DNA from: a bacterium
Lineage (GTDB): Bacteria > Bacillota > Clostridia > Oscillospirales > Acutalibacteraceae
Assembly: GCA_963649715.1 (NCBI GenBank)
Contig: CAVJIV010000003.1
Span: forward strand, 75,817 to 139,816
DNA: 64,000 nucleotides
Reading direction: 5' to 3'
Both the position numbers and the translations under genes were made by a program. Shown in pieces: positions 10,012-59,990 of the stretch (positions within the stretch are counted from its first letter, which is position 1; each line of letters starts with the position of its first letter). The notes under the pieces are model-generated. The model searched no databases, was not told the DNA's origin, and saw only the letters and a program-made list of their open reading frames with translations.

Positions 10012-10129
10012 TTCTTTCCACCTCTGTTTAAAATACATTATAGAATACTTTATCACTTTTAACTGATAAAGTCAATTGTATTTTGATAAAATGATATCTC
10101 ACATCCTGCTATGTGTGCAGGTCTGAAAT

Positions 10130-21355: not shown

Positions 21356-21523
21356 ATTTGTTTTTGGTGCTGAATTTAAACAAAACTTGATTTTTATACA
21401 AAAAAAGTATACAATTCTGTCGCAATATGCTATAATAAATCAATCGTTGCTTGATTTACGGGTGCAGTAACCGTGCTTTCGGTCAATCGACGGTTTAAAA
21501 TAAAAATCGAGGAGAGATTAACA

Positions 21524-23323
21524 ATGAAAAAAAGGATTTCGGCAATTTTTCTGATTGTCGCAATGCTGGTCGGCTTCTGTCTGCCTGCCTCTGCCGCAAC
21601 GACGATGAAGCTGACGGGTGTGACATATCCGACAACAATGAAGGAGGGCGAGCCGTTCATCGCAAAGGGCGTTATCACCTCCGACTACTACATTCGCAAG
21701 GTCGTTATCGGTGCTTACAATTCGAGCGGTGCAGCCGAATTTGAGTACACCGGTTTACCGGGCGAAAAAACCTACGATATAAACAATGTGGATTATCTTC
21801 TGTATTTTTCAAGGCTGAAAAGCGGCAGTTACACCTATAAAATCGTCGCTTCCGACGATAACAGCTCCAATGTTGTGTTGCTGAATCAGAATTTTACCGT
21901 CACAAACGACGGGCAGGCGGCAAGCACATTGAAAATTACAAACGCAAATTATCCGACGGTGCTTGATGTCGGCGAGGGACTTTCCGTAACGGGTGTTGTT
22001 TCCTCAAATTATAATATTTCAAAAATAGTAATCGGCGCATACAAGTCCGACGGAACTAAGGGCTTTGAACAAACCGTGACTCCCGGCGCAAAGAGCTATG
22101 ACCTCAGCAGCATTGATGCGTTGCTCACATTTTCAAAGCTCGGCGCAGGAACATATACATATAAAATCGTTGCAAGCGACGCCGTTAAATCAAATGTTGT
22201 GCTTCTCAACAAGAGCTTTACGGTCGGCGGCGGAACTTCGATTACGGGAGATCTGACAAATGTCAAATGGGATGTTGCCGATATTTCATATTGGAACAGC
22301 GACTATATAAGCTCATGGTCAAAAATCGCAGCCGATTTGGATGCGATTATTCTCAGAATCGGATTTTCTTACACGGGAAGCAAAAAATCCGAGGAGGACA
22401 GCAAGTTTTCGGGATACTACAGCAACGCTAAAAAGAACAATATCCCCGTCGGAGTGTATTTCTACGCCGCAGCTACTACGGCATCCGAGGCAAGCAAGGA
22501 AGCGGATTTTGTCATTTCCCTTTTGAAAAAATATAATTGTCAATTGGAAATGCCGGTTTACTATGATCTGGAAACGGAGGCTCAGGTTGAGCTGACCCAG
22601 TCGCAGTGCACCGATGTGGCAAGAGCCTTCTGCGATAAGCTGAAGGCGGCGGGCTATTTTGTCGGAATTTATTGCAACAAGTATTTTGCAAGAGATGAGC
22701 TTTACGCTTCAAAGCTTTCGGATTTTCAGTTCTGGATCGCCGAATACGGCTCAAGCTGTACCTACAGCGGAGAATACGGAATGTGGCAGTATACCGAGTC
22801 GGGCTGGGTCTCCGGAATCAGTCGCCAATGCGACAAAAACTATTGCTACTACGATTATCCGTCATACATAAAAGCGAACGGATTGAACGGCTTTACCAAG
22901 GCCGCCGACCCGCAGTTCAGCTTCAAGACGGGAACAAATCTCAGCGTAAACGAGAGCAAAAAGGAAGTTTATTTGAAGCAAGATCCGGGCTTGACGGCGG
23001 ATCAGTTTATTTCAAAATATGTCACAAGCAAGGATGTAACGGTTAAGACGGCGGCTTTGTCCTCGGACGGAAAGGTTGCAACGGGCACGACGATCACTGC
23101 CGAGGGCAGCGGAAAGAGCTTCGGCTCTTACGCAATATGCCTTTACGGTGATCTGAATTCCGACTCAAAGATAAATTCTGCCGACGCTCTTTTGATTCTT
23201 CAGCATTCCGTTGGGGTAACGGTTCTTAAGAGCTATGCGCTCACGAGCGCAGACTGGAACGGCGACGGAAAGGTAAATTCCGCCGACGCTCTTGCGGTTT
23301 TGACTTATTCGGTTTCAAGGTGA
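21524..23323 (+). CDS. Secreted GH25 muramidase with two tandem ~120-aa Ig-like repeats and a C-terminal type I dockerin
   Basis: Signal peptide MKKRISAIFLIVAMLVGFCLPASA. Two internally homologous modules (...YTYKIVASDDNSSNVVLLNQNFTV and ...YTYKIVASDAVKSNVVLLNKSFTV). GH25 core (DAIILRIGFSYTG...VGVYFY...YYDLE...FWIAEYG...MWQYTESG). Dockerin duplicate (GDLNSDSKINSADALLIL / DWNGDGKVNSADALAVL). Confidence 0.88.
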   Translation: MKKRISAIFLIVAMLVGFCLPASAATTMKLTGVTYPTTMKEGEPFIAKGVITSDYYIRKVVIGAYNSSGAAEFEYTGLPGEKTYDINNVDYLLYFSRLKSGSYTYKIVASDDNSSNVVLLNQNFTVTNDGQAASTLKITNANYPTVLDVGEGLSVTGVVSSNYNISKIVIGAYKSDGTKGFEQTVTPGAKSYDLSSIDALLTFSKLGAGTYTYKIVASDAVKSNVVLLNKSFTVGGGTSITGDLTNVKWDVADISYWNSDYISSWSKIAADLDAIILRIGFSYTGSKKSEEDSKFSGYYSNAKKNNIPVGVYFYAAATTASEASKEADFVISLLKKYNCQLEMPVYYDLETEAQVELTQSQCTDVARAFCDKLKAAGYFVGIYCNKYFARDELYASKLSDFQFWIAEYGSSCTYSGEYGMWQYTESGWVSGISRQCDKNYCYYDYPSYIKANGLNGFTKAADPQFSFKTGTNLSVNESKKEVYLKQDPGLTADQFISKYVTSKDVTVKTAALSSDGKVATGTTITAEGSGKSFGSYAICLYGDLNSDSKINSADALLILQHSVGVTVLKSYALTSADWNGDGKVNSADALAVLTYSVSR

Positions 23324-35865: not shown

Positions 35866-35893
35866 TTGACTTTTTTTCGTTCTATGCTATAAT
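35866..35893 (+). promoter_or_regulatory. Promoter of tRNA-Leu (TTGACT-16-TATAAT)
   Basis: TTGACT at 35866-35871 and TATAAT at 35888-35893, about 35 nt before the tRNA 5' end. Confidence 0.6.
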
Positions 35894-35928: not shown

Positions 35929-36015
35929 GCAGGAGTGGCGGAATCGGCAGACGCGCTAGATTCAGGTTCTAGTGAATGCAAGTTCATGAGGGTTCAAGTC
36001 CCTTCTCCTGCACCA
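35929..36015 (+). tRNA. tRNA-Leu (anticodon CAG), class II with long variable arm, encoded CCA
   Basis: GCAGGAGTGGCGGAATCGGCAGACGCGCTAGATTCAGGTTCTAGTGAATGCAAGTTCATGAGGGTTCAAGTCCCTTCTCCTGCACCA. The acceptor stem is GCAGGAG/CTCCTGC, the anticodon stem-loop is CTAGA-TTCAGGT-TCTAG, and the T-loop is GGTTCAAGTCC. Confidence 0.95.
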
Positions 36016-36017
36016 GA

Positions 36018-36045
36018 AAGAGTCGCTTGGGCGGCTCTTTTTTTA
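36018..36045 (+). terminator. Intrinsic terminator after the tRNA
   Basis: AAGAGTCGCttggGCGGCTCTT followed by TTTTT. Confidence 0.75.
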
Positions 36046-36147: not shown

Positions 36148-36176
36148 TTTACATTTACGATTAAATATGTTATATT
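36148..36176 (+). promoter_or_regulatory. Candidate promoter of the kinase/STAS/MATE/NRPS operon (TTTACA-17-TATATT)
   Basis: TTTACA at 36148-36153, a 17-nt spacer, then TATATT at 36171-36176. A CACTTCacaatagGGAAGTG hairpin follows in the roughly 85-nt leader. Confidence 0.45.
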
Positions 36177-36255
36177 ATCATTAAATTAGCACTTCACAAT
36201 AGGGAAGTGTTGTCATTTGCCGTAGGAAATCAAACCGGTATCCTGAAAGCGAGGG

Positions 36256-36669
36256 ATGATTATGTGCTCTCTTTGCGTTGAGGCGATAAAGGAAAACCTG
36301 AGCGATGTTATCGATTTTGTCACGAAGCAGCTCGGCGAAGACGCTGACGAAAAAATCCGTTTTGAATTTGAGCTGATTTGCGAGGAGATTTTCGTCAACA
36401 TTTGCAGCTACGCTTACGGCGAAAAAATCGGCGAAGCAGAAATCAAAATCGACAAATCGCCGGACGGAATCGTTATAAAATTTATTGACGGCGGCAAGGA
36501 ATTTGATCCGCTTAAAAAGCCGAATCCCGACATTGAAGCTCCGCTTGAGGATCGATGCAGCGGGGGTCTTGGGATATTTATCACAAAGAAATTATCCGAC
36601 CGGCTTCTGTATAAAAGAGAGGACGGCAGGAATGTTCTGACGGTTATAAAGGCAACGCCGCACAGGTGA
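36256..36669 (+). CDS. RsbW/SpoIIAB-like anti-sigma-factor-type serine kinase (HATPase_c)
   Basis: 137 aa, or 135 aa if the second ATG at 36262 is used, which fits the GAGGGA RBS better. N box EEIFVN, G1 IDGGKEFDP and G2 SGGLGIFITKKL are all intact. Confidence 0.8.
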   Translation: MIMCSLCVEAIKENLSDVIDFVTKQLGEDADEKIRFEFELICEEIFVNICSYAYGEKIGEAEIKIDKSPDGIVIKFIDGGKEFDPLKKPNPDIEAPLEDRCSGGLGIFITKKLSDRLLYKREDGRNVLTVIKATPHR

Positions 36670-36736
36670 GCCTTTGCTGACCGCCGAACGAAATACAGCA
36701 AATTTTCGCCAATTCAGCTCACTGGAGGTAAAATAT

Positions 36737-37045
36737 ATGGAAATCAACAAAGCTATCAGCAACCAAAATGTTATCATCACGCTTAAGGGTCGCCTTGACA
36801 CAATGACGGCTCAGCAGCTTATCGGTGAGATAAGCGACATTGATTATGACGAGGTGGAAACCGTAACGCTCAATTTTAAAGACCTTGAGTATATTTCAAG
36901 CTCGGGACTGAGAGTTATTCTCTCGCTTTACAAAAACCTCAAAAGCAACGGCGGCAGCCTGAAAATCGTCAATGTCAACAATATGATAATGGAGCTTTTC
37001 TCGATGACGGGAATGCGTGATTTTCTTGATATCGAGCAGGCATAA
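36737..37045 (+). CDS. STAS-domain anti-sigma-factor antagonist (SpoIIAA/RsbV-like)
   Basis: MEINKAISNQNVIITLKGRLDTMTAQQL...FKDLEYISSSGLRVILSLYK, which carries the conserved phosphorylatable serine context. ATG at 36737 after GGAGG. Confidence 0.88.
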   Translation: MEINKAISNQNVIITLKGRLDTMTAQQLIGEISDIDYDEVETVTLNFKDLEYISSSGLRVILSLYKNLKSNGGSLKIVNVNNMIMELFSMTGMRDFLDIEQA

Positions 37046-37059
37046 GCCAAGGAGTTAAA

Positions 37060-38817
37060 ATGAGCAGTACGACACTTGGCAGGAACGCCGTGACCGTCAA
37101 CAAAAAATATGCGGAATATTTTCTTCCGACGGTTCTGACGGCTATGGCAACAAATATTGCAACGATCGTTGATTCGATCATTGCCGGAAATCTTCTCGGA
37201 CAAAGCGCACTTGCGGCAATCAGCCTTATGTCGCCGATTTCTCAGCTTTATTTTTCAATCACGATTCTTTTCGGGCTGGGAGCGTCCTCTATAATTTCTT
37301 TTGCAAAAGGAAAGCGAGACGACAAGCAGGCGGATAGGGTTTTCACTTCGACCTTTATCGTGCTCGTTGCGCTCAGCGTGATTTTTATCGCAGTTCAGCT
37401 GCCGCTGGCGGATACGATATGCTCCCTCCTGACGCAGGACGCAGAGCTGAAATCATTGCTGTATCAATACTATGTTCCTTTCATAATAGGAACACCGGTC
37501 TATCTTTTGCTTATGTGCTCCGTTTATTTTGTCAGGGCGGACGCAAGACCCAAGTTTGCTTCAAACATTGTGATTATCGCCAATGCTGTAAAGCTGGGAC
37601 TGGACTATCTTTTTATGGGCGCATTGAAGCTCGGCATTGCCGGCTCGTCGATTGCAACCGTGCTGGGATATATCGTCGGCTTTGTGATAATGTCAACGCA
37701 CTTTATAACGAAAAAAAGCACGCTTCATTTTGATTTTTCAATTCTCGGAAATCCGCCCGAATTTTTCAAATCTCTCGGCAGAATGACGACGATTGGAGTT
37801 TCGGGTGCGCTCGGAACGATGCTCATAGCGGTCAAAATGCTGTTTTTGAATACAATTATTCAGAGCGCGGGCGGAAGCGCAGGCATGGTTTCCTATTCCG
37901 TATGCTCGTCAAGCCAAATCTTTATGTCGATGTTTATCACGGGCGCAAGCCAAACGATGATACCGATCATCGGAGTTTGCCTCGGCGAAAAGGACTATGA
38001 CGGAGTTCGCTATGCGTTCCGCAAGGCGGCAAGGGTGCTTGCCGTTTCGAGCGTTGTGATCATGCTGTTCCTGTGCGCAGCTCCCGAACCGATAATCAAA
38101 TTTTTCGGAATAAACTCTCCCGAGGATATTGCAAACACGGTTCCGGCGCTGAGGATCAATGCGATATCCTTCCCCGGAATGGCGTTCTCATTCCTGCTGC
38201 TTTATTACTATATGGCAACGCAAAAAAGAGCGATTTCAACCGCAATTTCGGTTATAAACGGAATAGTTATAATCATACCGTCGGCGTTGATTCTTTCAAA
38301 ATTTTTCGGTATCACGGGCGTTTGGCTTTCGCTTGTTGTGTCGCAGTTCGGAACGCTCGTCGTCGTTTATTTCATCGACCTCGTCGAAAAGAAAAAATCC
38401 GGTGGAAAATATAAAAGCTTCTATCTTCTTGAAGAAACGGAGGATAACGAGATCCTTTCGCTTTCGTTTAAGGGAACAAAGGAAAATGCGGCAGGCGTTT
38501 CGCTCTATCTTTCCTCTTTCCTTGCGAAGAACGGAATTGAGGAGCTTCGTGCGAACAGAATTGCGGTCGCCGTTGAAGAGATGGCAGCCGACTGCGCAGA
38601 AAGAATGAAAAACAAAAAGAAAGACGCCGACATTGATATAAGAATTTTTTCCGACAGGGACGGAACCGTTATTTCGGTTCGTGATAACGGCGAGGAGTTC
38701 AATCCGCTCGACGGTGAAAAGCAGGAGCCGAATCCGCTCAGCGTCGTGAAAGCGATTTCGGAAAAAGTGGAATATTCGCGAGTAATCGGTTTTAACCGTA
38801 CAATAATTAAACTTTAA
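37060..38817 (+). CDS. MATE family efflux transporter fused to a C-terminal degenerate RsbW-like (HATPase_c-type) domain
   Basis: Residues 1 to about 440 form a 12-TM MATE protein (FLPTVLTAMATNIATIVDSIIAGNLLG...). Residues from about 455 to 585 align with the 36256 kinase (AVEEMAADCAERM / ISVRDNGEEFNPL / SRVIGFNRTIIKL). It is one uninterrupted ORF. Confidence 0.85.
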   Translation: MSSTTLGRNAVTVNKKYAEYFLPTVLTAMATNIATIVDSIIAGNLLGQSALAAISLMSPISQLYFSITILFGLGASSIISFAKGKRDDKQADRVFTSTFIVLVALSVIFIAVQLPLADTICSLLTQDAELKSLLYQYYVPFIIGTPVYLLLMCSVYFVRADARPKFASNIVIIANAVKLGLDYLFMGALKLGIAGSSIATVLGYIVGFVIMSTHFITKKSTLHFDFSILGNPPEFFKSLGRMTTIGVSGALGTMLIAVKMLFLNTIIQSAGGSAGMVSYSVCSSSQIFMSMFITGASQTMIPIIGVCLGEKDYDGVRYAFRKAARVLAVSSVVIMLFLCAAPEPIIKFFGINSPEDIANTVPALRINAISFPGMAFSFLLLYYYMATQKRAISTAISVINGIVIIIPSALILSKFFGITGVWLSLVVSQFGTLVVVYFIDLVEKKKSGGKYKSFYLLEETEDNEILSLSFKGTKENAAGVSLYLSSFLAKNGIEELRANRIAVAVEEMAADCAERMKNKKKDADIDIRIFSDRDGTVISVRDNGEEFNPLDGEKQEPNPLSVVKAISEKVEYSRVIGFNRTIIKL

Positions 38818-38865
38818 GCAGTCGCCGAACAGACGGGGACTGCATAACGAACGGAGTTGACCATA

Positions 38866-41800
38866 ATGGAAAATTTGACTGAAATGCTTGACGCCTGCAA
38901 GGAAGAAAAAAGGGAGCTTTATCCGCTCACGCCCAGTCAGATGGGAATTTATCTTTCGTGTATGCACAATCCGCAGGGCACTATGTACAATATTGCCTGC
39001 TCTTTCCGTTTTGATAAGGGAGAGATCGACCTTGACAGATTGAAGATGTCTGTCAAAAAAGCGGTTGACAATCACCCCATTACCAAGGCTTTTATAGATA
39101 ATTCCACGGGAAGTCCGATGATGAAGCTTCGCAGCAGCATTGATATTGACATTCCCGTTATGCAGGTTGACGACCTTGAAAAGGCTGCCGAGGATTTCGT
39201 AATACCGTTTGACCTCGAAAATGATGTTCTTGTTCGTTTTGTCGTTTTTGAATGCGGCGACAAAGACATGTTTGTCATGAATCTTCACCATATTATTTTT
39301 GACGGCACATCGGTTACGGTATTTTGCGACGATATTTCGCTCGCCTACGACGGAAAAGAGCTTCCGCCGGAAAAATTCACGCAGCTTGAGCTGGCTGTTT
39401 TTGAAGAAAAGCTTGAAAGCACCGAGACTTACCGAGAGTCAAAGGAATATTACGACAATATTTTCTCCGCCGTTGAAGAAAAATCTGAAATTACGGAGGA
39501 TTTTGCCGAAAAGCCCGAGCTTGAGGACAAGCCTGCCGCCCTCTTTGAGGTGACGACGGAGGGCAGATTTTCCGTTGACGCCGTGCGCAGTTTTGCACGG
39601 GAGCTCAATATAACCCCCTATACCGTCTTTCTCGGCGCATATGAATACGCAGTCGCAAAGTTCACCAATCAGAACGAGGCGACCGTGTGCACCGTTACCC
39701 ACGGCAGATTCGACAAGAGGCTTGCAAACACCGTCGGAATGATGGTTCGCACTCTTCCGATGCACGCAGATATTGACGAGGAAACCTCCGTCTGCGATTT
39801 CCTTAAAAATGTGCGTAAGAGCATAACCGAAACCGTCAAAAACGATTATTACCCGTTCATGAAGCTTGCGGCGGACTATGACCTTTCCGCCGACATTATG
39901 ATGGCTTATCAGGGCGGCAATATATTGAATTCGATCAAGCTCGGCGATCGATCCTTTAAAATAGGGCTTTTGCCGTTCAAGAGCGCCCTTGCAAAAATAA
40001 ATGTTATGGTGTTTGAATCGGGCGAAAATTTCACCCTGCGCTTTGATTACAGAAGCGATTTGTTCAGGGAGGAAACCATCCGCTCGTTTGCCGATTCATT
40101 CATAACGATAATCGAACAGTTCCTTGAAAAAGAAAAGCTTTGCGAGGTCGAGCTTGTGAGCAAGCAGCAGCTTGCCTTGCTTGACAGCTTCAACAAAACC
40201 GAAGTCCCGTATGACGAGAGCAAGACGATTGTCGATTTGTTTGAGGAGAGCTGCAAAAAAGCTCCCGAAAATATCGCCGTTGTTTATAAAGAAAAGAAGC
40301 TTACCTATGCCGAGGTAGACGAAAGCACGGATCGCATTGCCGGCTTTGTTCATTCAAAGGGTATCGGCAAAGAGGATGTTGTTGCGATCCTCATTCCGAG
40401 ATGCGAATATATGCCGATCGCAGCGCTCGGCGTTATGAAGGCGGGAGCTGCTTATCAGCCCCTTGACCCGTCATATCCGACCGAAAGATTGCAATTCATG
40501 GTCAAGGACGCAAACGCAAAGCTCTTGATTGCGGACGAGGGTCTGCTCGAGCTTCTGCCGAATTACGAGGGCGAGATTCTTCTCACAAAGGATATTCCGA
40601 GCCTGCCGAAGACGATTCCCATGTCCGAGAGGCCGTCACCGGAGGATTTGTTTATCCTTATCTACACCTCCGGCTCAACGGGCACTCCCAAGGGAGCTAT
40701 GCTTGAGCATCGGAATTTGCACGCAATGTGCAGAACCCATATAAGAAATTATGATATTACTGCTGACAGCATTTGCGCATCATATGCCAGCTACGGCTTC
40801 GACGCCTGCCTTATGGAGATGTACTGCCCCCTTGTTGTCGGTGCGCCGCTCCATATTATTGATGAGGATATCAGGCTCGACCTTGTTAAGCTGAACCGAT
40901 ATTTTGAGGATAACGGTATCACCCAGGTCTTTATGACAACGCAGGTTGCAAGACAGTTCGCAACCGAGATCGAAAACCATTCGCTCAAGCATCTCATAAC
41001 CGGCGGAGAAAGGCTTGTTCCGCTTGAGCCGCCGAAGAATTTTGAGCTTGTCAATATTTACGGTCCGACGGAGTGTATAGTTTATATCACATCGCAGAGG
41101 GTCGATAAGCTCTACGACAGAGTCCCAATCGGAAAAGCGGTTGATAATGTCAAGCTTTACATAATCGATAAATACAACAGGCGGCTTCCCGTCGGCGCAT
41201 TGGGCGAGCTTTGCGCTTCGGGCAATCAGGTTTCAAGAGGATATCTCAACCGTCCCGAGCAGACCGAAAAGGTATACGGAAAGAACCCCTACTGCGATGA
41301 AAAGGGCTACGAAAGATTTTATCACACGGGCGATATCGTTCGCTTTACCGATGACGGCAAGGTGGACTATATCGGCAGAAATGACGGTCAGGTAAAGATC
41401 AGAGGCTTCCGTATCGAGCTTTCCGAGGTCGATAAGATTATCCGCAATTACGATGGAATTACCAATTGCGCCGTGGTTGCCAAGGCTCTTGAGGGCGGCG
41501 GACAGTGCATTAACGCATACATTGTTGCCGACAGAGAAATCGACATTCAAAAGCTCAACGAGTTTATTCTGGAGCACAAGCCGCCGTATATGGTTCCCGC
41601 CGCCACGATGCAAATCGACGCAATTCCGCTCAATGTAAACGGCAAGCTCGACAGGCGCAAGCTTCCCGAAATCAAGACGGAAGCCGCCAAGAAGAAAAAT
41701 TCCGCACCGAGAGAGCTTACCTTCCTCGAAAAGAAAATTTCGGGCATTGTGGAAAAGGTCATCGGACACAATGATTTTGATGTTTCCGAAAATCTCATCA

Positions 41801-44800
41801 ACGCCGGCATGACCTCACTTTCCGTCATCAAGCTCGCAGTTGAGCTTAACAAGGCTTTTGGATTTGAGTCGCAGGTTAAAAAGATGATGAAGGGCTGCTC
41901 GATTCTTTCGATAGAGGATGAGCTTCAGGAGTTCATTTTCAGCGGCGCGATGAAGACACAAGCCGCCGAGGCAAAAGAGAAGAAAGAGCGCAAGGCTTTT
42001 TATCCGCTCTCAAAAACTCAGCTCGGCGTGTATATCGACTGCATGAAAAATCCGTACAGCACGATTTATAATATCCCGTCCGTTATCACTTTTTCAAAAT
42101 CAACCGATTCGCAAAAGCTTGCCGATTGCATTGCCCGAATCATCAAGGCTCACCCATACATCATGACGGGGCTTACGCTTGAGAACGACGAGATCGAGCA
42201 GAAATATGTTGACTCGGCAGAGCCGGACATCTCCGTAAAGAAGCTTACGGAGGAGCAGCTTGAAGCATACAAAAAAGATTTTGTGAAGCCGCATAATCTG
42301 ATGAAATCGCCGTTGTTCAGAATTTCCGTTGTCGAAACGGAAAAGGCTGTTTATCTGCTTTGGGATTTCCACCACATTATCTTTGACGGAGCGTCCGTCG
42401 CCTTGTTCCTTGAGCAGCTCAAGACCTTGTATGAGGGCGGCGAGATCGAGCCTGAGGATTACACATACTTTGACTATGTTGAAGATGAAACAAAGGCGGA
42501 AAACGGAGAAAGCTACAAAAATGCGGAAAAATTCTTCGACGATATGATGGAGGATTTTGAATCCGCAAGCGAAATTACGGCAGACCTCCGAGGCCATGCG
42601 ACGGACGGCAGACTTGCTTCGCAGGCAGTTCCCGTGGATATGGCAAGGGTAGAAAAATTCTGCTCTGAAAACGGAGTTACGCCGGCTCACCTTTTCCTTG
42701 CCGGAACATTCTATGCCGTTTCAAGATTTGTGAATAGCAGGAATGTATATATAAGCACAATCAGCAACGGCAGGAGCGATATACGGCTCACAAACTGCTT
42801 CGGTATGTTTGTAAAAACTCTTGCGCTCGGAATCGAGGTTGAGGATATAACCTCACTTGACTTTGTCCGAAAGAGCAAGGCGGTTTTCACGGGGGCGATA
42901 GAGAACGAGATTTATCCCTATACCGAGCTTTGCACAAAATACGGCTATGCGCCGAACATCATGTACGAATATCAGCTCGGCGTTGTTGACGAAATGAAAA
43001 TAAACGGCGAAGCGGTTCTCTGCGATTACCTTGAAATGGACACGGCAAAGTTCAAAACGGCCGTTCATATCGAGGAGCACGAGGGCAAGCCGAGCGTTGT
43101 GGTTCAGTATAACGATGCGCTTTACAGCGGCGAGATTATGAAAACGCTTGCAAAATCCGTTCTCTGCGCCGTTGAGCATATAATCGAAAACCCGAACGGA
43201 AAAATCAGAAAGGTTTCGCTTCTTGATGACGATGCGCTGGCGCAGCTTGACCGCTTCAAATCCAGCGAGATTGTTCCCGTCGAAACAAAGATACTTCATA
43301 AAATGATAGAGCAGCAGGTTGCCAAAACTCCCGAAAGGATTGCATTGGTTGCCTGCGACGGCAAGCTGACATACAAAGAGCTTGACCGCCTTGCAAATAT
43401 CACGGCAAACTCCCTCATCGAAAGGGGAATCAAAAAGGGCGGAAAAGTTCTCCTGTTGCTCAGCAGAACCTCAAGGTTCTTCACCTCGCTTCTCGGCGTT
43501 CTCAAGGCTGGCGGCGCATTCATTCCGTCGTGTCCGGAATATCCGAAAGAGCGAATAGAAAGCATTATTGAGGATAGCAACGCCGACTTCGTTATCACGG
43601 AGGGCGAGCTGCTCGACAGATACGAAAGAACCGTTGACGCTGCGGAGCTTCTTTCCGGCACGAACGACAGCAACCCGGGCGTTGAGGTTCAGCCCGAGGA
43701 TCTTGCATATCTTATCTATACCTCAGGATCAACCGGCAAGCCGAAGGGCGTTATGCTCCGTCATATAGGCATCGCAAACTACCTTGCATACAGCAAGGCG
43801 AATATTCAGGGCAAGACGGTTATTGAAAGCTGCCATACATACGGCTCGGTAACAACCATCAGCTTTGACCTGTCGCTCAAGGAAACCTTGCTTTCGTTCT
43901 GCCACGGACTTACGCTCGCCTTTGCAAGCGACGATCAAACGCTCAATCCCGTTGCGCTTGCAAAGTTCTTTAAAGAAAACAATGTTGATGCGTTCAACTC
44001 TACGCCGTCACGACTTTTGCAGTATATGGAGCTTGAAGAGTTCACACAGGCAATGGCAAACTGCAAGGCGATACTTTCCGGCGGCGAAAAATATCCAGAC
44101 AAGCTGTTGAAGATCCTGCGGGAAAAAACAAACGCAACTATCATCAACACATACGGTCCGACGGAGATCACCGTTTCCTCAAACGCAAAAGATCTCACAA
44201 ATGCGGATGCTATCACGGTCGGCAGACCGCTGCGCAATTACACGGAGTATATCGTTGACGCGGACGATAATCTTCTTCCGGTCGGAGTTGTCGGCGAGCT
44301 TCTCATTCAGGGCTGCGGCGTGGCGCTCGGCTATATGAATCTTCCCGAACAGACGGCGAAAGCCTTCGTTGAATTCAAGGGCGAACGCACATACCGCTCC
44401 GGCGACTATGCAAAATGGACGGCAGACGGCGAGGTTGTTATTCTCGGCAGAACAGACAATCAGGTTAAACTGAGAGGACTGCGCATTGAGCTTGGCGAGA
44501 TTGAGAAATGTCTGACGGCTCTTGACGGAATCAAAACCGGAATTGCGCTTATAAGAAAGGTCGGCAAAACCGACGCCATCTGCGTTTACTACACGGCGGA
44601 AAGGCAGCTTGACCCGGAGGACATCAAGGCTCAGCTCAAGAAAACCCTTACGGATTATATGGTTCCGAGCGCATATGTTCAGCTTGACGCAATGCCGCTC
44701 ACCCCGAACGGCAAGGTCAACACAAAGGCTCTCCCCGAACCGAAGCTTGACAAGGCGGGAAGCGGACAGCTTCCGAAGAACGAGCTTGAAAAGACATTCT

Positions 44801-46209
44801 GCGATATTTTTGCGGAAATTCTTGAGCTTGACACCGTGTTTGCGGACGAGAATTTCTTTGACATCGGCGGCACATCGCTTACGGCAACCAGAATTGTAAT
44901 TTCTGCGTCGAAGAAAAACATCGAGCTTGCATATAACGAGGTCTTTGAGAATCCGACGCCGCAGGCTCTTGCAAGGTTCATCAGTAAGGACGATTCGGGC
45001 AAGAATGATATTGATGACATTGAAAATCTCTCGGATTACGACTACACAAACATCAACGAGCTTCTAAAGAAGAACAACATCGACTCGTTCAGAAACGGAG
45101 AGCGTCAGGAGCTTGGCAATGTTCTGCTGACAGGACCGGCAGGCTTCCTCGGAGTGCATATTCTCTATGAGCTGCTTCATAAATATAACGGCAAGGTTTA
45201 TTGCCTGATTCGAGACAAGAACAATAACCCTGCCGAAAGTCGATTGAATTCGATCTACTATTATTATTTTGAGGAGAGTCTCAAGGAAAAATATCCCGAC
45301 AGAGTTTTTGCTGCGGACGGCGATGTAACTAACCGTGCTTGCTTTGACGAGCTTCTTGATAAGGACATCAACACGGTTATCAACTGTGCCGCAAATGTTA
45401 AGCATTTCTCAAAGGGCACTGATATTGAGGATGTTAACCTGTACGGAACTCTCAATGTGCTCGATTTCTGCAAGGCGGCAAACGCACGGCTTGTCCATGT
45501 TTCAACGATGAGCATCGGAGGAATGTTTGTCGGCGAGAAAGGCCCTGTCGAAAGGCTCAGGGAGGATCAGCTTTATTTCGGTCAGTATGAAGGCTCAAAA
45601 TACACGCTGTCAAAGTTCCTTGCCGAAAGGGCGATACTTGAAGAGGCGTCGAACGGCTTCAATGCAAAGATAATGCGCGTCGGCACGCTTGCTGCACGAA
45701 ACAGCGACGGCGAATACCAGATAAACTTCACCACCAACACATTCATGGGCAGACTGAAATCCACACTGCTCATCGGCAAATATCCGTATGAGGCGATGGA
45801 AATGCCGTTTGAGCTTTCGCCGGTAGATTTTGTTGCAAAGGCGATACTTCTGCTTGCGCAAGCTCCGAAGGAGTGCACGGTGTTCCACCCGTTCAACAAC
45901 CATACCCTCATTATGGGCGATCTTTATACCGAGATGAACAAGATAGGGCTTCATTCGGAGGGTGCGGAGCACGACGAATATATGGCTGCGCTCGATAGGG
46001 CGGAGCAGGATCCCGAAAAGGCAAAGATTTTGTCAAGCATGATTGCGTATCAGAATATGGCGCACGGACAGAAAACATTCACCGTCGCCAAGAGCAACGC
46101 ATATACAATGCAGGTTCTCTACAGAATGGGATTCATGTGGCCGGTTACATCGTTCGACTATATGAAACGATTCATCAACGCTTTGAGAGGTCTTGGCTTC
46201 TTTGATTGA
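38866..46209 (+). CDS. Bimodular nonribosomal peptide synthetase, C-A-T-C-A-T-R (terminal thioester reductase)
   Basis: 2447 aa from the ATG at 38866. Approximate nt spans: C1 38910-40170 (HHIIFDGTS at ~39286); A1 40230-41680 (LIYTSGSTGTPKG, FDACLME, NIYGPTE, YHTGD, GRNDGQVKIRGFRIEL, NGKLDR); T1 41720-41920 (NAGMTSLSV); C2 41990-43250 (HHIIFDGAS); A2 43300-44745 (LIYTSGSTGKPKG, FDLSLKE, NTYGPTE, YRSGD, GRTDNQVKLRGLRIEL, NGKVNTK); T2 44790-44990 (IGGTSLTA); R 45115-46200 (LLTGPAGFLG Rossmann, YxxxK as YTLSK). Confidence 0.97.
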   Translation: MENLTEMLDACKEEKRELYPLTPSQMGIYLSCMHNPQGTMYNIACSFRFDKGEIDLDRLKMSVKKAVDNHPITKAFIDNSTGSPMMKLRSSIDIDIPVMQVDDLEKAAEDFVIPFDLENDVLVRFVVFECGDKDMFVMNLHHIIFDGTSVTVFCDDISLAYDGKELPPEKFTQLELAVFEEKLESTETYRESKEYYDNIFSAVEEKSEITEDFAEKPELEDKPAALFEVTTEGRFSVDAVRSFARELNITPYTVFLGAYEYAVAKFTNQNEATVCTVTHGRFDKRLANTVGMMVRTLPMHADIDEETSVCDFLKNVRKSITETVKNDYYPFMKLAADYDLSADIMMAYQGGNILNSIKLGDRSFKIGLLPFKSALAKINVMVFESGENFTLRFDYRSDLFREETIRSFADSFITIIEQFLEKEKLCEVELVSKQQLALLDSFNKTEVPYDESKTIVDLFEESCKKAPENIAVVYKEKKLTYAEVDESTDRIAGFVHSKGIGKEDVVAILIPRCEYMPIAALGVMKAGAAYQPLDPSYPTERLQFMVKDANAKLLIADEGLLELLPNYEGEILLTKDIPSLPKTIPMSERPSPEDLFILIYTSGSTGTPKGAMLEHRNLHAMCRTHIRNYDITADSICASYASYGFDACLMEMYCPLVVGAPLHIIDEDIRLDLVKLNRYFEDNGITQVFMTTQVARQFATEIENHSLKHLITGGERLVPLEPPKNFELVNIYGPTECIVYITSQRVDKLYDRVPIGKAVDNVKLYIIDKYNRRLPVGALGELCASGNQVSRGYLNRPEQTEKVYGKNPYCDEKGYERFYHTGDIVRFTDDGKVDYIGRNDGQVKIRGFRIELSEVDKIIRNYDGITNCAVVAKALEGGGQCINAYIVADREIDIQKLNEFILEHKPPYMVPAATMQIDAIPLNVNGKLDRRKLPEIKTEAAKKKNSAPRELTFLEKKISGIVEKVIGHNDFDVSENLINAGMTSLSVIKLAVELNKAFGFESQVKKMMKGCSILSIEDELQEFIFSGAMKTQAAEAKEKKERKAFYPLSKTQLGVYIDCMKNPYSTIYNIPSVITFSKSTDSQKLADCIARIIKAHPYIMTGLTLENDEIEQKYVDSAEPDISVKKLTEEQLEAYKKDFVKPHNLMKSPLFRISVVETEKAVYLLWDFHHIIFDGASVALFLEQLKTLYEGGEIEPEDYTYFDYVEDETKAENGESYKNAEKFFDDMMEDFESASEITADLRGHATDGRLASQAVPVDMARVEKFCSENGVTPAHLFLAGTFYAVSRFVNSRNVYISTISNGRSDIRLTNCFGMFVKTLALGIEVEDITSLDFVRKSKAVFTGAIENEIYPYTELCTKYGYAPNIMYEYQLGVVDEMKINGEAVLCDYLEMDTAKFKTAVHIEEHEGKPSVVVQYNDALYSGEIMKTLAKSVLCAVEHIIENPNGKIRKVSLLDDDALAQLDRFKSSEIVPVETKILHKMIEQQVAKTPERIALVACDGKLTYKELDRLANITANSLIERGIKKGGKVLLLLSRTSRFFTSLLGVLKAGGAFIPSCPEYPKERIESIIEDSNADFVITEGELLDRYERTVDAAELLSGTNDSNPGVEVQPEDLAYLIYTSGSTGKPKGVMLRHIGIANYLAYSKANIQGKTVIESCHTYGSVTTISFDLSLKETLLSFCHGLTLAFASDDQTLNPVALAKFFKENNVDAFNSTPSRLLQYMELEEFTQAMANCKAILSGGEKYPDKLLKILREKTNATIINTYGPTEITVSSNAKDLTNADAITVGRPLRNYTEYIVDADDNLLPVGVVGELLIQGCGVALGYMNLPEQTAKAFVEFKGERTYRSGDYAKWTADGEVVILGRTDNQVKLRGLRIELGEIEKCLTALDGIKTGIALIRKVGKTDAICVYYTAERQLDPEDIKAQLKKTLTDYMVPSAYVQLDAMPLTPNGKVNTKALPEPKLDKAGSGQLPKNELEKTFCDIFAEILELDTVFADENFFDIGGTSLTATRIVISASKKNIELAYNEVFENPTPQALARFISKDDSGKNDIDDIENLSDYDYTNINELLKKNNIDSFRNGERQELGNVLLTGPAGFLGVHILYELLHKYNGKVYCLIRDKNNNPAESRLNSIYYYYFEESLKEKYPDRVFAADGDVTNRACFDELLDKDINTVINCAANVKHFSKGTDIEDVNLYGTLNVLDFCKAANARLVHVSTMSIGGMFVGEKGPVERLREDQLYFGQYEGSKYTLSKFLAERAILEEASNGFNAKIMRVGTLAARNSDGEYQINFTTNTFMGRLKSTLLIGKYPYEAMEMPFELSPVDFVAKAILLLAQAPKECTVFHPFNNHTLIMGDLYTEMNKIGLHSEGAEHDEYMAALDRAEQDPEKAKILSSMIAYQNMAHGQKTFTVAKSNAYTMQVLYRMGFMWPVTSFDYMKRFINALRGLGFFD

Positions 46210-46226
46210 TAGGCGATAAAAAAAGA

Positions 46227-46269
46227 AACCCGGAGCTGTTGCAAAAATGCAGCAGCTCCGGGTTGTTTT
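46227..46269. terminator. Bidirectional intrinsic terminator after the NRPS
   Basis: AACCCGGAGCTGttgcaaaaatgcaGCAGCTCCGGGTT followed by GTTTT and preceded by an A-run. The next gene is convergent. Confidence 0.85.
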
Positions 46270-50325: not shown

Positions 50326-51912
50326 ATGGATACAGAAATTTTAGACGGCGGCTCACCGCAGGATATTGAAAAAGCCGCAAAAATCCTTAAAAGCGGCGGA
50401 CTTGTCGCTATCCCGACCGAAACGGTCTACGGGCTTGCGGCGAATGCGCTGAATCCCAATGCCGTCGCAAAAATCTTCAAGGCAAAGGGAAGACCGATGG
50501 ATAATCCGCTGATAGTGCACATTTGCCGGTTTGAGGAAATATACAAGCTTGTCAAAGGCGTTCCGCATAAGGCAAAGGAGCTTGCCGATCGCTATTGGCC
50601 GGGACCGATGACAATAATCTTGCCGAAATCGGATATTATTCCCGACGAGGTGAGCGCAGGCTTGCAGACGGTTGCCGTTCGTATGCCGTCTCACCCGGTC
50701 GCAAGGGCGATAATAGAAAAAACGGGATATCCGCTTGCCGCCCCGTCAGCCAACTCTTCGGGGCTTCCCAGTCCCACGACGGCAAGGCATGTTATGGACG
50801 ATATGAAAGGAAAAATCGAGGCGATAGTTGACGGCGGCTCGTGCGATGTCGGTATCGAGTCAACAGTAGTGACGCTTGCGACCGATCCGCCGAGGCTTCT
50901 CAGACCGGGAGGAATAACCCATGAACAGCTTGAAGAGGTTCTGGGGCATGTCGATATCGATCCTGCCGTGCTTTCGCAGCTCAAGGAGGGCGTGCGCCCG
51001 GCTTCGCCCGGAATGAAATACAAGCATTATTCGCCGAAAGCCGAGGTATATATAGTAAACGGCAGCTTGCCGAGCTTTAAATATCAGATAGCTTCCGACC
51101 TGCGCGAGGGAGACGCAGCGCTTTGCTTTGAGGGGGAGGAGAACGAGCTTCCGCTCCCGTGCCTTTCCTTCGGCAGAAAGGATAATTCGCTTGAGCAGGC
51201 ACACAGCCTTTTTGACGACTTGCGCAAATTTGATGACATGGGCGCAACGCGTGTGTTTGTCCGTGCACCGTCCGCCGAGGGGATAGGGTTTGGAGTTTAC
51301 AACCGCCTTTTGCGTGCGGCTGCGTTTAAAATCATTGAACCGCCCGTTATTTACGGACTGACCGGTCAAAGCGGCGCAGGCAAAACAACGGTTGCCGACG
51401 AGCTGAAAAAGAAAGGCTATCTGATAGTTGACGGCGATATTCTTGCAAGGAGAGCTGTTGAAATCCCTGAGGTGCTCAATTCGCTTGCGTCGGAATTTGG
51501 AAAAGAAATTCTTGATTCGGATGGAAAGCTTATCCGTGCCGAGCTTGCCGGCAGAGCCTTTGCCAATGAGCATAAACGACGGCTGCTCAATAAAATCACC
51601 CACCCGATGATAACAAAGCTTGCTCTTGAAGAGATAAAAAACAATTTCACTGCGGAGTATAAGGGCGTTATCATTGATGCGGCGGCGATTTTTGACTGTG
51701 AGCTGGCAAAATATTGCACAAAAATGATAGTTGTGACCGCCGACACGGAGATCCGTGCCGAGCGCATAATGAAGCGTGACGGCATAGACCGTGAAAAGGC
51801 AATGCTCAGAATAAATGCGCAGAAAAATGAGCAATATTATATAGAAAGGGCAGATGTTGTTGTCCGCAACAACGGTGACGAAAGCCTGTCCGAGCAGCTG
51901 AATGAATTATAA
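50326..51912 (+). CDS. Fusion protein: L-threonylcarbamoyladenylate synthase (Sua5/TsaC, YrdC + Sua5 domains) joined to dephospho-CoA kinase (CoaE)
   Basis: N-terminal part: KSGGLVAIPTETVYGLAANA...SANSSG...SPGMKYKHYSP. C-terminal part from about residue 345: IYGLTGQSGAGKTTVADELKKKGYLIVDGD...KITHPMI. It is a single 528-aa ORF. Confidence 0.85.
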   Translation: MDTEILDGGSPQDIEKAAKILKSGGLVAIPTETVYGLAANALNPNAVAKIFKAKGRPMDNPLIVHICRFEEIYKLVKGVPHKAKELADRYWPGPMTIILPKSDIIPDEVSAGLQTVAVRMPSHPVARAIIEKTGYPLAAPSANSSGLPSPTTARHVMDDMKGKIEAIVDGGSCDVGIESTVVTLATDPPRLLRPGGITHEQLEEVLGHVDIDPAVLSQLKEGVRPASPGMKYKHYSPKAEVYIVNGSLPSFKYQIASDLREGDAALCFEGEENELPLPCLSFGRKDNSLEQAHSLFDDLRKFDDMGATRVFVRAPSAEGIGFGVYNRLLRAAAFKIIEPPVIYGLTGQSGAGKTTVADELKKKGYLIVDGDILARRAVEIPEVLNSLASEFGKEILDSDGKLIRAELAGRAFANEHKRRLLNKITHPMITKLALEEIKNNFTAEYKGVIIDAAAIFDCELAKYCTKMIVVTADTEIRAERIMKRDGIDREKAMLRINAQKNEQYYIERADVVVRNNGDESLSEQLNEL

Positions 51913-52003
51913 AACAATCGCCCTGCGCAAACTGTCGGTTCGAGCAAGGCGAAAAAGAATAAGTTTACCGCAAATCGGTCGAATTTTTAAGGAGGAAATC
52001 ATA

Positions 52004-53413
52004 ATGGCAGAGGAAAAGACTGAAGTTGACATTTTGTGCGAAAAATTGTTTATGAACAAGAAGCACAGCGCAAATTTTGTAGACGAAGCAGAGCTTCAAA
52101 AGGCGATGGATTTTGCCGAGGATTACAAAAAATTCCTCAACGACAACAAGACGGAGCGAGAGGTTGCACGGTTTGTTGTTGCGGAGGCGGAGAAAAAGGG
52201 CTTCGTTCCCTTTGATAAATTCAAGAAGTATGCACCCGGCGACAGGGTTTATTATCTCAACCGCAAAAAGGCGGTCATTCTTGCGGTTATCGGCAAGAAG
52301 AGCGTTGGAGAGGGCGTAAGAATAGCAGCGGCGCACATCGATTCGCCCCGTCTTGACCTTAAACCGAATCCGCTCTATGAGGCGAACGAGGTTGCTCTTT
52401 TCAAAACGCACTACTACGGCGGAATCAAGAAATATCAGTGGACGACAATTCCGATGTCGCTCCACGGCGTTGTCGTTCTGCGTGACGGCACTGAGGTTGA
52501 GGTCAATATCGGCGAGAAAGAGGGAGAGCCTCAGTTCGTTATTTCCGATCTTCTCCCCCATCTTTCAAAGGAGCAGGATAAGAGAACGCTTGATGACGGA
52601 ATCAAGGGCGAGGAGTTGAATGTTATCGTCGGCACGCTTCCGTTTAAGTCGGATAAGGGCAGCGAGCTTGTCAAGCTCAATATTCTCAAGCATCTCAACG
52701 AGAAATACGGCATGGTCGAGGAGGATTTCCTCACCGCCGAGCTGGAAATGGTTCCGGCGGCAAGGGTTACGGATATCGGATTTGACCGCAGCCTTATCGG
52801 CGGCTACGGTCATGACGACCGTGTTTGCGCTTATCCCGAGCTGAGGGCGATTCTTGATCTTGACGAAGCTCCGGATTACACTGCCGTTGCCGTTCTCACC
52901 GACAAGGAGGAGACAGGCTCGGACGGAAACACCGGACTGAATTCATCATATATGAAGTATTTTATCGCCGACCTTGCAAGAGCGGAGGGACTTATGGTTT
53001 GGGATGTCCTTTCAAAGTCAAAGTGCCTTTCCGCCGATGTAAATGCGGCGTTTGACCCGACCTTCCCGACTCCGTTTGAGGCAAAAAATGCGTCATATCT
53101 CAACAGAGGTATCGTTGTAACGAAGTACACGGGCGCAAGAGGCAAGGGCGGCACATCGGACGCAAGCGCAGAGTTTGTCGGCGAGGTTACGAGAATTTTC
53201 AACAATGCCGATGTTAATTGGCAGCTCGGCGAGCTTGGCGCGGTTGACGCAGGCGGCGGCGGAACGGTTGCAAAATATATTGCAAATCTCGATGTTGATG
53301 TTGTTGATGTCGGCGTTCCCGTTCTCTCGATGCACGCTCCGTTCGAGCTTATCGCAAAGCTGGATGTCTATATGGCGAACAAGGCGTTTTCTGCATTCTT
53401 TAAGGCGCATTAA
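52004..53413 (+). CDS. M18 family aminopeptidase
   Basis: AAHIDSPRLDLKPNP, GYGHDDRVCAY, DKEETGS and SMHAP. ATG at 52004 after AAGGAGG. Confidence 0.88.
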   Translation: MAEEKTEVDILCEKLFMNKKHSANFVDEAELQKAMDFAEDYKKFLNDNKTEREVARFVVAEAEKKGFVPFDKFKKYAPGDRVYYLNRKKAVILAVIGKKSVGEGVRIAAAHIDSPRLDLKPNPLYEANEVALFKTHYYGGIKKYQWTTIPMSLHGVVVLRDGTEVEVNIGEKEGEPQFVISDLLPHLSKEQDKRTLDDGIKGEELNVIVGTLPFKSDKGSELVKLNILKHLNEKYGMVEEDFLTAELEMVPAARVTDIGFDRSLIGGYGHDDRVCAYPELRAILDLDEAPDYTAVAVLTDKEETGSDGNTGLNSSYMKYFIADLARAEGLMVWDVLSKSKCLSADVNAAFDPTFPTPFEAKNASYLNRGIVVTKYTGARGKGGTSDASAEFVGEVTRIFNNADVNWQLGELGAVDAGGGGTVAKYIANLDVDVVDVGVPVLSMHAPFELIAKLDVYMANKAFSAFFKAH

Positions 53414-58099: not shown

Positions 58100-58255
58100 A
58101 TAACTCCTTTCACAGCATTACCTGATCAAAGAAAATCGCCCGACGGATATACCGCCGGGCGTAGATTTTACTTCAATAGCTTCCTACGTCGGTATTATCC
58201 GAATCAGGTTAAGGGTATAATCTCAGCCGATTTCTCAGCACCCCTGCTGTTGCAA
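58100..58255 (-). promoter_or_regulatory. TPP (THI-box) riboswitch with terminator expression platform
   Basis: Reverse strand: CAGGGGTGCTGAGAAATCGGCTGAGATTATACCCTTAACCTGATTCGGATAATACCGACGTAGGAAGC. The terminator CGCCCGGCGGTatatCCGTCGGGCG + ATTTTCTTT follows. Confidence 0.88.
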
Positions 58256-59714: not shown

Positions 59715-59985
59715 CATAAAAAACAAAAACTCCTGTCCCGACAACATTGCCGGGACAAGAGATATACTCCTGCGGTGCCACCCTGCTTGACACATTTTCG
59801 TGTCCACTTAGCTCGTACCCCATTATACGACGGTTATTGTTAACGGAGTACCCTCTCCGTCTTGCATACTTTTAGTTCTGCTCGCCCTCGGAAGTCCATT
59901 CAACTCTGCTTTTCACACTGTATCGCACCGAACTACAGCTCTCTGAAGCGTCCGCCGGAGTCTACTTACTCTCCCTCATCGGTTT
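59715..59985 (-). promoter_or_regulatory. T-box leader, Trp specifier (UGG)
   Basis: Reverse-strand elements: AGAGAG...GGTGCGA; specifier context GAATGGAC with TGG at 59898-59896; T-box AGCAGGGTGGCACCGCAGGAG; terminator CTCTTGTCCCGGCAATGTTGTCGGGACAGGAG + TTTTTGTTTTTT. Confidence 0.85.
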
Positions 59986-59990
59986 ACTGC

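Follow-up and report, generated by a model that had tools for sequence, protein, structure and literature searches.

A family of gut Clostridia nonribosomal peptide synthetases (NRPSs) that make dipeptide aldehydes was reportedly described by Guo et al. (Cell 2017). The rup NRPS cluster of Ruminococcus bromii was mined by Schneider and Balskus, its enzymes were characterised in vitro, and its products were concluded to be dipeptide aldehydes, according to PMC12327764. Ruminopeptin is described in PMC8518294 as an N-acylated Leu-Glu aldehyde. The same paper reports that a Clostridium cluster, BGC0001686, gave N-octanoyl-Met-Phe-H in Escherichia coli, and it groups this cluster with dipeptide-aldehyde clusters common in the gut; characterised gut clusters of the BGC0001686 and rup kind yield aldehydes (PMC8518294 and PMC12327764). 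Release by the reductase domain of AusA is a two-electron step. Cyclisation to a pyrazinone, a route taken by many gut dipeptide aldehydes, can be hindered by an N-acyl tail, which stabilises the aldehyde (PMC8210680). The subject of this report is a four-gene operon (36256-46209, + strand) in the 64,000-nucleotide stretch of DNA analysed here (the window), whose last gene encodes an NRPS with the domain order C-A-T-C-A-T-R (C, condensation; A, adenylation; T, carrier; R, thioester reductase). The operon is orthologous to a cassette of R. bromii and probably makes an N-acyl-(aliphatic)-Glu aldehyde by the route proposed below. The system itself is already known, the locus being a new relative of it, and the only feature specific to the locus is a re-coded pocket in the first A domain (A1).

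Orthology to the R. bromii cassette and domain order of the NRPS

The NRPS is 80.7% identical at the amino acid level to that of R. bromii ATCC 27255 (locus L004) over all 2447 residues. The three upstream genes are collinear in the two loci, with identities of 62% for the HATPase_c_2 protein, 83% for the STAS protein and 86% for the MATE-HATPase_c_2 protein. DNA homology between the window and L004 covers exactly 36232-46211, from just before gene 1 to 2 bases past the NRPS stop codon, and the flanks are unrelated. By this sequence comparison the window cassette is a sister-clade orthologue of the ATCC 27255 cassette. The latter would itself be the published rup cluster, judging from the species, the C-A-T-C-A-T-R layout reported for rup and the very large protein cluster involved. 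The full-length identity of 81% and the common four-gene cassette bear out a first-pass annotation of the window, which placed the locus in the gut dipeptide-aldehyde/ruminopeptin family. That annotation also held that near-identity to a characterised cluster would remove the novelty of the NRPS itself, and the close orthology to the R. bromii cassette largely does so.

The NRPS is encoded by a single, uninterrupted open reading frame (ORF; 38857-46209, + strand). Its likeliest start is the ATG at 38866, which is preceded by GGAG at 38853-38856; translation from this codon gives 2447 aa with zero internal stops, and the stop codon is at 46207-46209. Pfam recognises two Condensation, two AMP-binding (with AMP-binding_C) and two PP-binding domains and a terminal NAD_binding_4/Epimerase-type domain at about residues 2085-2327, and it finds neither a thioesterase nor an epimerisation domain in the NRPS. 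The gene and its domains are as follows.

38866..46209, + strand: NRPS, gene 4, C-A-T-C-A-T-R, 2447 aa (ORF, Pfam, NCBIfam)
38911..40161, + strand: C1, N-terminal condensation domain, aa 16-432, HHIIFDGT (Pfam, motif)
40240..41646, + strand: A1, adenylation domain, aa 459-927, code DAMFIGIVYK, aliphatic type (Pfam, code extraction)
41713..41925, + strand: T1, carrier domain, about aa 950-1020, GMTSL with Ser984, borders approximate (Pfam PP-binding, motif)
41992..43275, + strand: C2, elongation condensation domain, about aa 1043-1470, HHIIFDGA (Pfam, motif, start of the MxcG-model match at aa 1043)
43300..44736, + strand: A2, adenylation domain, aa 1479-1957, code DLKNLGTVSK with Lys239, predicted Glu (Pfam, NCBIfam, code extraction)
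44797..44982, + strand: T2, carrier domain, aa 1978-2039, GGTSL with Ser2004 (Pfam PP-binding, motif)
45118..46206, + strand: R, terminal thioester reductase, aa 2085-2447, TGPAGFLG, Y2246/K2250 (Pfam NAD_binding_4, E 2.7e-34; PDB matches)

The domain call of the first-pass annotation stands, with neither a thioesterase nor an epimerisation domain in the place of R, and the motifs on which it was based are present. Regular-expression searches locate the HHxxxDG motifs of both condensation domains, HHIIFDG(T) of C1 at residue 141 (nt 39286-39306) and HHIIFDG(A) of C2 at residue 1169 (nt 42370-42390). The A3-A10 series said to be complete in both A domains is indeed so. The same searches find A3 (SGSTGTPKG at residue 602 in A1, SGSTGKPKG at residue 1620 in A2), A4 (FDAC and FDLS), A5 (NIYGPTE and NTYGPTE), A8 (GRNDGQVKIRGFRIE and GRTDNQVKLRGLRIE) and A10 (NGKLDRR and NGKVNTK), and A6, A7 and A9 of both domains can be read off the translation. 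The SDR-type (short-chain dehydrogenase/reductase-type) end is confirmed by TGPAGFLG at residue 2089 and YTLSK at residues 2246-2250. Two carriers are present as described, with GMTSL at residues 981-985 of T1 (Ser984) and GGTSL at residues 2001-2005 of T2 (Ser2004). The description of GMTSL as unusual did not hold, as the motif is the family norm: it occurs in 16/16 same-length relatives scored by a motif script, R. bromii-type proteins included, and longer relatives have G[ML]TSL at T1. GMTSL was also considered as the sign of a defective carrier and was rejected as such, the serine being kept and the motif family-wide. We hold the domain and orthology statements on the NRPS to be nearly certain.

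Ratios of nonsynonymous to synonymous substitution rates (dN/dS), calculated by the Nei-Gojobori method for the window NRPS domains against four orthologues, are 0.005-0.23 across all seven domains and reveal purifying selection. R is the most conserved domain, 99.4% identical to that of a closely related locus (L006) and 90% to that of R. bromii, with dN/dS of 0.005-0.04. C1 is the least conserved, with corresponding values of 87%, 71% and 0.09-0.23. Divergence from L006 is uneven within the gene: the C1 segment (38866-40185) is at 87% with dN/dS of 0.23 and the R segment (45118-46206) at 99.4% with 0.005, while the housekeeping neighbours are at 96-98%.

In-frame deletion variants of the NRPS exist in the R. 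bromii clade. In proteins P0016-P0023 (1946 aa) residues ~961-1442, comprising T1 and C2, are gone and C-A-A-T-R is left; in P0014 (2058 aa) most of C2 is deleted. As several of these variants are on contigs of >500 kb, they are apparently genuine alleles in circulation in R. bromii. Their circulation would suit the view that the window gene is a decaying or silent relic without a product, as would the report that no one has isolated the native product (PMC12327764). We consider this view highly improbable: the 7.3-kb ORF is intact with all catalytic motifs kept, dN/dS is well under 1 in every domain, and operon signals are present. The NRPS gene is not decaying.

Predicted substrates, cap and mode of release

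In the proposed pathway a phosphopantetheinyl transferase (PPTase) encoded elsewhere would prime Ser984 and Ser2004. A1 would charge T1 with an aliphatic amino acid of the Ile, Val or Leu type, and the N-terminal C1 would cap the amine of this first residue with an acyl group from a donor acting in trans, either acyl-CoA or an acylated acyl carrier protein (acyl-ACP). A2 would charge T2 with L-Glu, and C2 would form the acyl-dipeptidyl thioester. NAD(P)H-dependent release by R would then yield an N-acyl-(aliphatic)-Glu aldehyde, which would inhibit proteases covalently but reversibly and have Glu as its P1 residue, and the MATE protein would export it. The kinase/STAS pair and the kinase-like tail of the MATE protein could act as a partner-switching circuit and so control production or export. 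We infer the substrates, the acyl donor, the two-electron release, the export and the regulation from the genes. That the product belongs to the class of MATE-exported protease inhibitors of the N-acyl-(Ile/Val/Leu-type)-Glu aldehyde kind seems reasonably likely; confidence in its exact residues and cap is low. The first-pass annotation had spoken of a pyrazinone-type product, and this is not expected if residue 1 is N-acylated as proposed, since a capped residue has no free amine with which to cyclise; the cap also stabilises the aldehyde (PMC8210680).

Several points weigh against this proposal. The product of the window locus is a prediction from its genes, and the products of the R. bromii rup cluster have never been isolated from culture of the native organism, by the account in PMC12327764. 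No PPTase was found in the 64-kb window by a PPTase-motif regular expression or by Pfam on essentially all ORFs of at least 150 aa, and the same Pfam search of the window found no acyl-activating, acyl-loading or ACP gene; the window has only two further AMP-binding genes, at 4723-6021 and 8374-10056, which lie among housekeeping genes 27-34 kb away. The best PDB matches of C1 are elongation-type, with an E value of 6e-28 for TycC as against 4e-15 for the starter C domain of SrfA (surfactin) and 6e-5 for that of CDA. Two- and four-electron reductases are inseparable by sequence. The A1 code differs at four positions from that of the dominant R. bromii type, so the identity of residue 1 is uncertain.

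Stachelhaus codes were extracted by alignment to a GrsA-PheA core, and the numbering reproduces the textbook code DAWTIAAICK. The window and its four closest relatives have A1 code DAMFIGIVYK and A2 code DLKNLGTVSK. The corresponding codes are DASFLGGVYK and DMKNLGTVSK in R. bromii ATCC 27255, and DASQLGGVYK and DMKNLGTVSK in the dominant R. bromii type. A2 therefore has 9/10 code residues in common with R. bromii; the sole change is M236L and Lys239 is retained. A lysine at position 239 fits an acidic side chain, because the surfactin-type Glu code DAKDLGVVDK has Lys there, and the A2 substrate, which would stand at the aldehyde end, is predicted to be Glu. A1 has changed by S239M, L299I and G322I, and also by Q278F relative to the dominant type. 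The bulkier residues of the window A1 pocket (Met239 and Ile322 versus Ser239 and Gly322 in R. bromii) may point to a smaller or beta-branched aliphatic substrate. As the A1 code is unlike that of R. bromii, the product may be another aliphatic-Glu congener.

Across 29 full-length relatives the last A domain has 6 near-identical codes, all D[LM]K[NS]xxTVSK, and the preceding A domain has 23 different codes. On these codes the P1 residue (Glu) appears to be fixed in the subfamily and the P2 residue to be diversifying. A Glu module and reductase that are nearly frozen, with a first module and capping domain that diversify, fit inhibitors of Glu-specific proteases tuned at P2 and at the cap, and the pattern could help in choosing which congeners to synthesise and which proteases to target. 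The same scaffold might join a different amino acid pair from that of ruminopeptin, residue 1 not being Leu or residue 2 not being Glu, and so act on another protease. We do not favor this alternative, yet it is a substantial possibility. The A1 changes listed above, the M236L change in A2 and the hypervariability of A1 (23 codes in 29 proteins) are all in keeping with it. Retention of Lys239 and of 9/10 code residues in A2 makes a change at P1 unlikely, however, and the A1 code residues are still aliphatic/hydrophobic, so that any change is probably within Leu/Ile/Val.

C1 keeps the catalytic HHxxxDG, and no carrier domain is upstream of it in cis. Its nearest solved relatives are elongation-type C domains, which keeps it from being assigned to the classic starter clade. 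Relatives of ~2990 aa (P0008-P0012 and P0025-P0033; 6001-14988 in locus L013) have an extra N-terminal A-T and thus the order A0-T0-C-A-T-C-A-T-R. Their T0 has the motif GGDSI, and their A0 is an NRPS-type adenylation domain without Asp235, so that no alpha-amino-group binding is expected. This composition implies that A0 loads a dedicated starter and not an alpha-amino acid. C1 of the window has an identity of 46-54% with the C domain after A0-T0 in these proteins, as against 29% with its own C2. From this kinship we infer that C1 belongs to a lineage that joins a non-amino-acid acyl group to residue 1; the donor would be supplied in trans, because the window NRPS has no loading module.

C1 might instead be idle, or without a donor in vivo, in which case a free dipeptide aldehyde would cyclise and oxidise to a pyrazinone as with AusA. 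The NCBIfam AusA model NF047350 covers only residues 424-2437 and excludes 1-423, that is, it matches all but C1. An idle C1 would also agree with its being the most diverged domain (71% to R. bromii), with the lack of an acyl-loading gene among those found in the window and with the frequency of pyrazinone formation among gut dipeptide aldehydes (PMC8210680). Yet the AusA model scores 1557.9, well under its equivalog cutoff of 2500, and C1 retains HHxxxDG with dN/dS of 0.09-0.23, is kept by family members of 45% to 94% identity, and has its orthologue directly after the loading A0-T0 in the longer relatives. An idle C1 is therefore unlikely, and capping by C1 remains the preferred reading.

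A 402-aa query comprising R has 6VTJ as its best solved relative, with an E value of 2e-71 over query residues 6-401 (NRPS residues ~2051-2446); 6VTJ and 6VTZ are structures of what we take to be an archaeal Methanobrevibacter NRPS. The AusA reductase 4F6C matches with an E value of 2e-37 and the MxaA R domain with 8e-20. The Rossmann motif TGPAGFLG, VST, and Y2246-x3-K2250 (catalytic Thr/Tyr/Lys) align with the AusA R domain and with 6VTJ. The 6VTJ and 4F6C matches back the earlier reading of the domain as one for reductive release. The number of electrons transferred is a separate matter. Residues 1043-2436 fit the NCBIfam model for MxcG, the myxochelin NRPS, and MxcG-type reductases take the thioester further than the aldehyde; were R such a four-electron enzyme, the product would be an N-acyl dipeptide alcohol (a lipopeptide alcohol) with no protease warhead. 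The MxaA match leaves room for this outcome, and sequence does not tell the two reductase types apart. The much closer match to the aldehyde-forming AusA R domain and the aldehydes obtained from characterised gut clusters of like kind (PMC8518294 and PMC12327764) make it improbable, and release of an aldehyde is preferred.

The cassette, its putative switch and its surroundings

The kinase, STAS, MATE-kinase and NRPS genes form a compact chromosomal cassette of ~10 kb amid housekeeping genes. The features that precede and follow the NRPS gene are as follows.

36148..36176, + strand: candidate promoter, sigma-70-like, TTTACA-17-TATATT, TG-extended, 80 nt upstream of gene 1 (consensus scan only)
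36256..36669, + strand: gene 1, 137-aa RsbW/SpoIIAB-like anti-sigma-type serine kinase, HATPase_c_2 only (Pfam E 1.5e-18; weak NCBIfam RsbW match)
36737..37045, + strand: gene 2, STAS anti-sigma-factor antagonist, ~102 aa, ISSSGL with a phosphorylatable serine (Pfam STAS E 1.4e-17)
37060..38817, + strand: gene 3, MATE efflux transporter with C-terminal HATPase_c_2 (kinase-like), 585 aa, presumed exporter (Pfam, NCBIfam)
46222..46269, strand not assigned: hairpin terminator, 22-nt arms and 4-nt loop followed by TTTT, possibly bidirectional, 13 nt past the NRPS stop (inverted repeat)

The gene 2 product scores 76.9 bits against the NCBIfam model TIGR00377 (cutoff 53.45), and GGAGG precedes its ATG at 36737. 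Gene 3 has two Pfam MatE domains and HATPase_c_2 at residues 473-557 and scores above the cutoff of NCBIfam TIGR00797. The MATE-HATPase_c_2 fusion is kept in 10/10 orthologous loci at 76-96% identity, and it is also present in locus L012 (4226-5986).

More distant relatives have other versions of these genes. The order is QueT-SpoIIE-HATPase_c_2 / STAS / MATE-HATPase_c_2 / NRPS beside a 67%-identical NRPS, MATE / NRPS / STAS beside a 56%-identical one, and dCache-SpoIIE-HATPase_c_2 / STAS / 447-aa protein / two tandem NRPSs beside a 45%-identical one (L014). The tandem NRPS genes of L014 (6001-13275 and 13287-19275) each encode C-A-T-C-A-T-R. The gene before STAS in distant relatives is a fusion of a sensor, SpoIIE(PP2C) and HATPase_c_2 (1525-3846 in L012, 2139-4307 in L014). 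Compared with these sequences, the window and R. bromii have what reads as a reduced switch, in which gene 1 consists only of the 137-aa kinase domain and the phosphatase half is missing from the cassette. The first-pass annotation proposed that the regulatory and export context of the NRPS may be new. This is not borne out, since the same genes precede the NRPS in R. bromii and variants of the module are beside relatives down to 45% identity.

The four-gene cassette has no sigma factor. Together with the MATE-kinase fusion and the STAS protein, this gene content suggests partner-switching on the transporter, and the STAS protein might, for instance, move back and forth between the free kinase and the kinase-like MATE tail. 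Natural-product efflux gated by a partner switch was not found described in the literature covered. A more far-reaching view is that the window clade makes a variant of ruminopeptin, in which the Glu-aldehyde P1 is fixed and the A1 pocket and the cap-selecting C1 are retuned to give a new N-acyl-Ile/Val-Glu-H, and that the kinase/STAS/MATE-tail switch gates export and not transcription. We offer this combination tentatively and regard it as doubtful as a whole.

The cassette is surrounded in the window by rsmE, rsmF, tRNA-Leu, prfA, Sua5-CoaE, IleRS and genes for dockerin proteins. The tRNA-Leu(CAG) gene (35929-36015, + strand) is ~240 nt upstream of the cassette, with a promoter-like site at 35866-35893 and a terminator at 36015-36042, and it is not beside the cassette in other loci. 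No att-like repeat of the tRNA-Leu 3' end was found downstream of the cassette and no att-like direct repeats flank it; the cassette flanks of L003 and L004 have no integrase or transposase, and the cassette has no plasmid or phage matches. A mobile island was considered and rejected as unsupported on these grounds, though the flanks differ between species. The loci closest to the window (L006 and L007) share its downstream housekeeping genes at 92-98% identity, so by gene content the cassette looks vertically inherited within its species group.

Other features of the window are observations in their own right. An M18-family aminopeptidase gene (51902-53413, + strand) is 5.7 kb downstream of the cassette. 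It is part of a housekeeping block, and R. bromii shows no linkage of this block to the cassette; M18 enzymes are aspartyl aminopeptidases with a preference for acidic residues at the N terminus, and the proximity of the gene to a predicted Glu-aldehyde pathway is probably a coincidence. Sua5/TsaC (threonylcarbamoyl-AMP synthase) and CoaE (dephospho-CoA kinase) are joined in one ORF (50326-51912, + strand). Three RNA elements on the - strand score above the Rfam gathering threshold, namely a T-box leader (59748-59988), a thiamine pyrophosphate (TPP) riboswitch (58164-58255) upstream of a Thia_YuaJ/ECF S-component thiamine-transporter gene, and a small signal recognition particle (SRP) RNA (1863-1960). 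A dockerin-bearing GH25 lysozyme-like protein is encoded at 21473-23323 (+ strand) and a second dockerin protein at 61920-62657 (- strand). Organisms of the R. bromii group typically have dockerin/cohesin (amylosome) systems, and the two proteins would accord with an origin of the window in that group, to which we assign the operon.

Relatives and comparison with described systems

A search of 5.8 billion proteins at E <= 1e-50 returned 571 relatives of the NRPS. The closest are 94% identical, a value shared by P0001 and by L006, and a Methanobrevibacter NRPS (P0048) is among the homologues. One 80%-identical match stands for a 90%-identity cluster with 23,328 member sequences. R. bromii-type NRPSs are thus very abundant in public data. 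A search for orthologous loci in one genome per GTDB species yielded 10 full-length or near-full-length NRPS orthologues, including one from Ruminococcoides intestinale (L008) at 80% NRPS identity. Three metagenome-assembled genome (MAG) bins with implausible taxon labels have NRPS identities of 90-94%. A Ruminococcus-type cassette with its flanks (NRPS 84-94%, guanine-cytosine (GC) content 44-49%) occurs under bins labelled Eggerthellaceae, Bacteroides faecis, Coriobacteriaceae and Bacteroidaceae (L003, L006, L007 and L009). These four bins are likely mis-binned or mislabelled MAGs.

The locus adds a sister-clade orthologue to these relatives and opens no new class of chemistry or biology. 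The T-R didomain of 6VTJ/6VTZ is the closest solved structure to the window R, and only the terminal domains can be compared. AusA/PznA of Staphylococcus aureus has the same A-T-C-A-T-R core, a homologous R (4F6C, E 2e-37) and a two-electron release of a dipeptide aldehyde (PMC8210680). It differs in being without an N-terminal C domain, and its free-amine product cyclises to a pyrazinone. The gut Clostridia dipeptide-aldehyde family, for example BGC0001686, has dimodular NRPSs with a thioester reductase end, and its demonstrated products are of the acylated dipeptide aldehyde class, with a protease-inhibitor function (PMC8518294 and PMC8210680). Relatives at 40-45% identity to the window NRPS share the C-A-T-C-A-T-R layout and the STAS/kinase neighbourhood. 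BGC0001686, compared here by its description, makes Met-Phe whereas the window is predicted to make aliphatic-Glu.

The rup cluster of R. bromii, compared through L004, which we take to be rup, is like the window locus in its C-A-T-C-A-T-R NRPS (81% full-length identity to the ATCC 27255 protein) and in having kinase, STAS, MATE-kinase and NRPS genes in the same order and on the same strand. T1 GMTSL is common to both, and the A2 codes agree at 9/10 positions with Lys239, in keeping with the Glu reported at the aldehyde end. The two differ in GC content (47.7% in the window versus ~40%), in their chromosomal flanks and in C1, which is only 71% identical. They differ also in the A1 code, in which the window is 3 positions off ATCC 27255 and 4 off the dominant R. 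bromii type.

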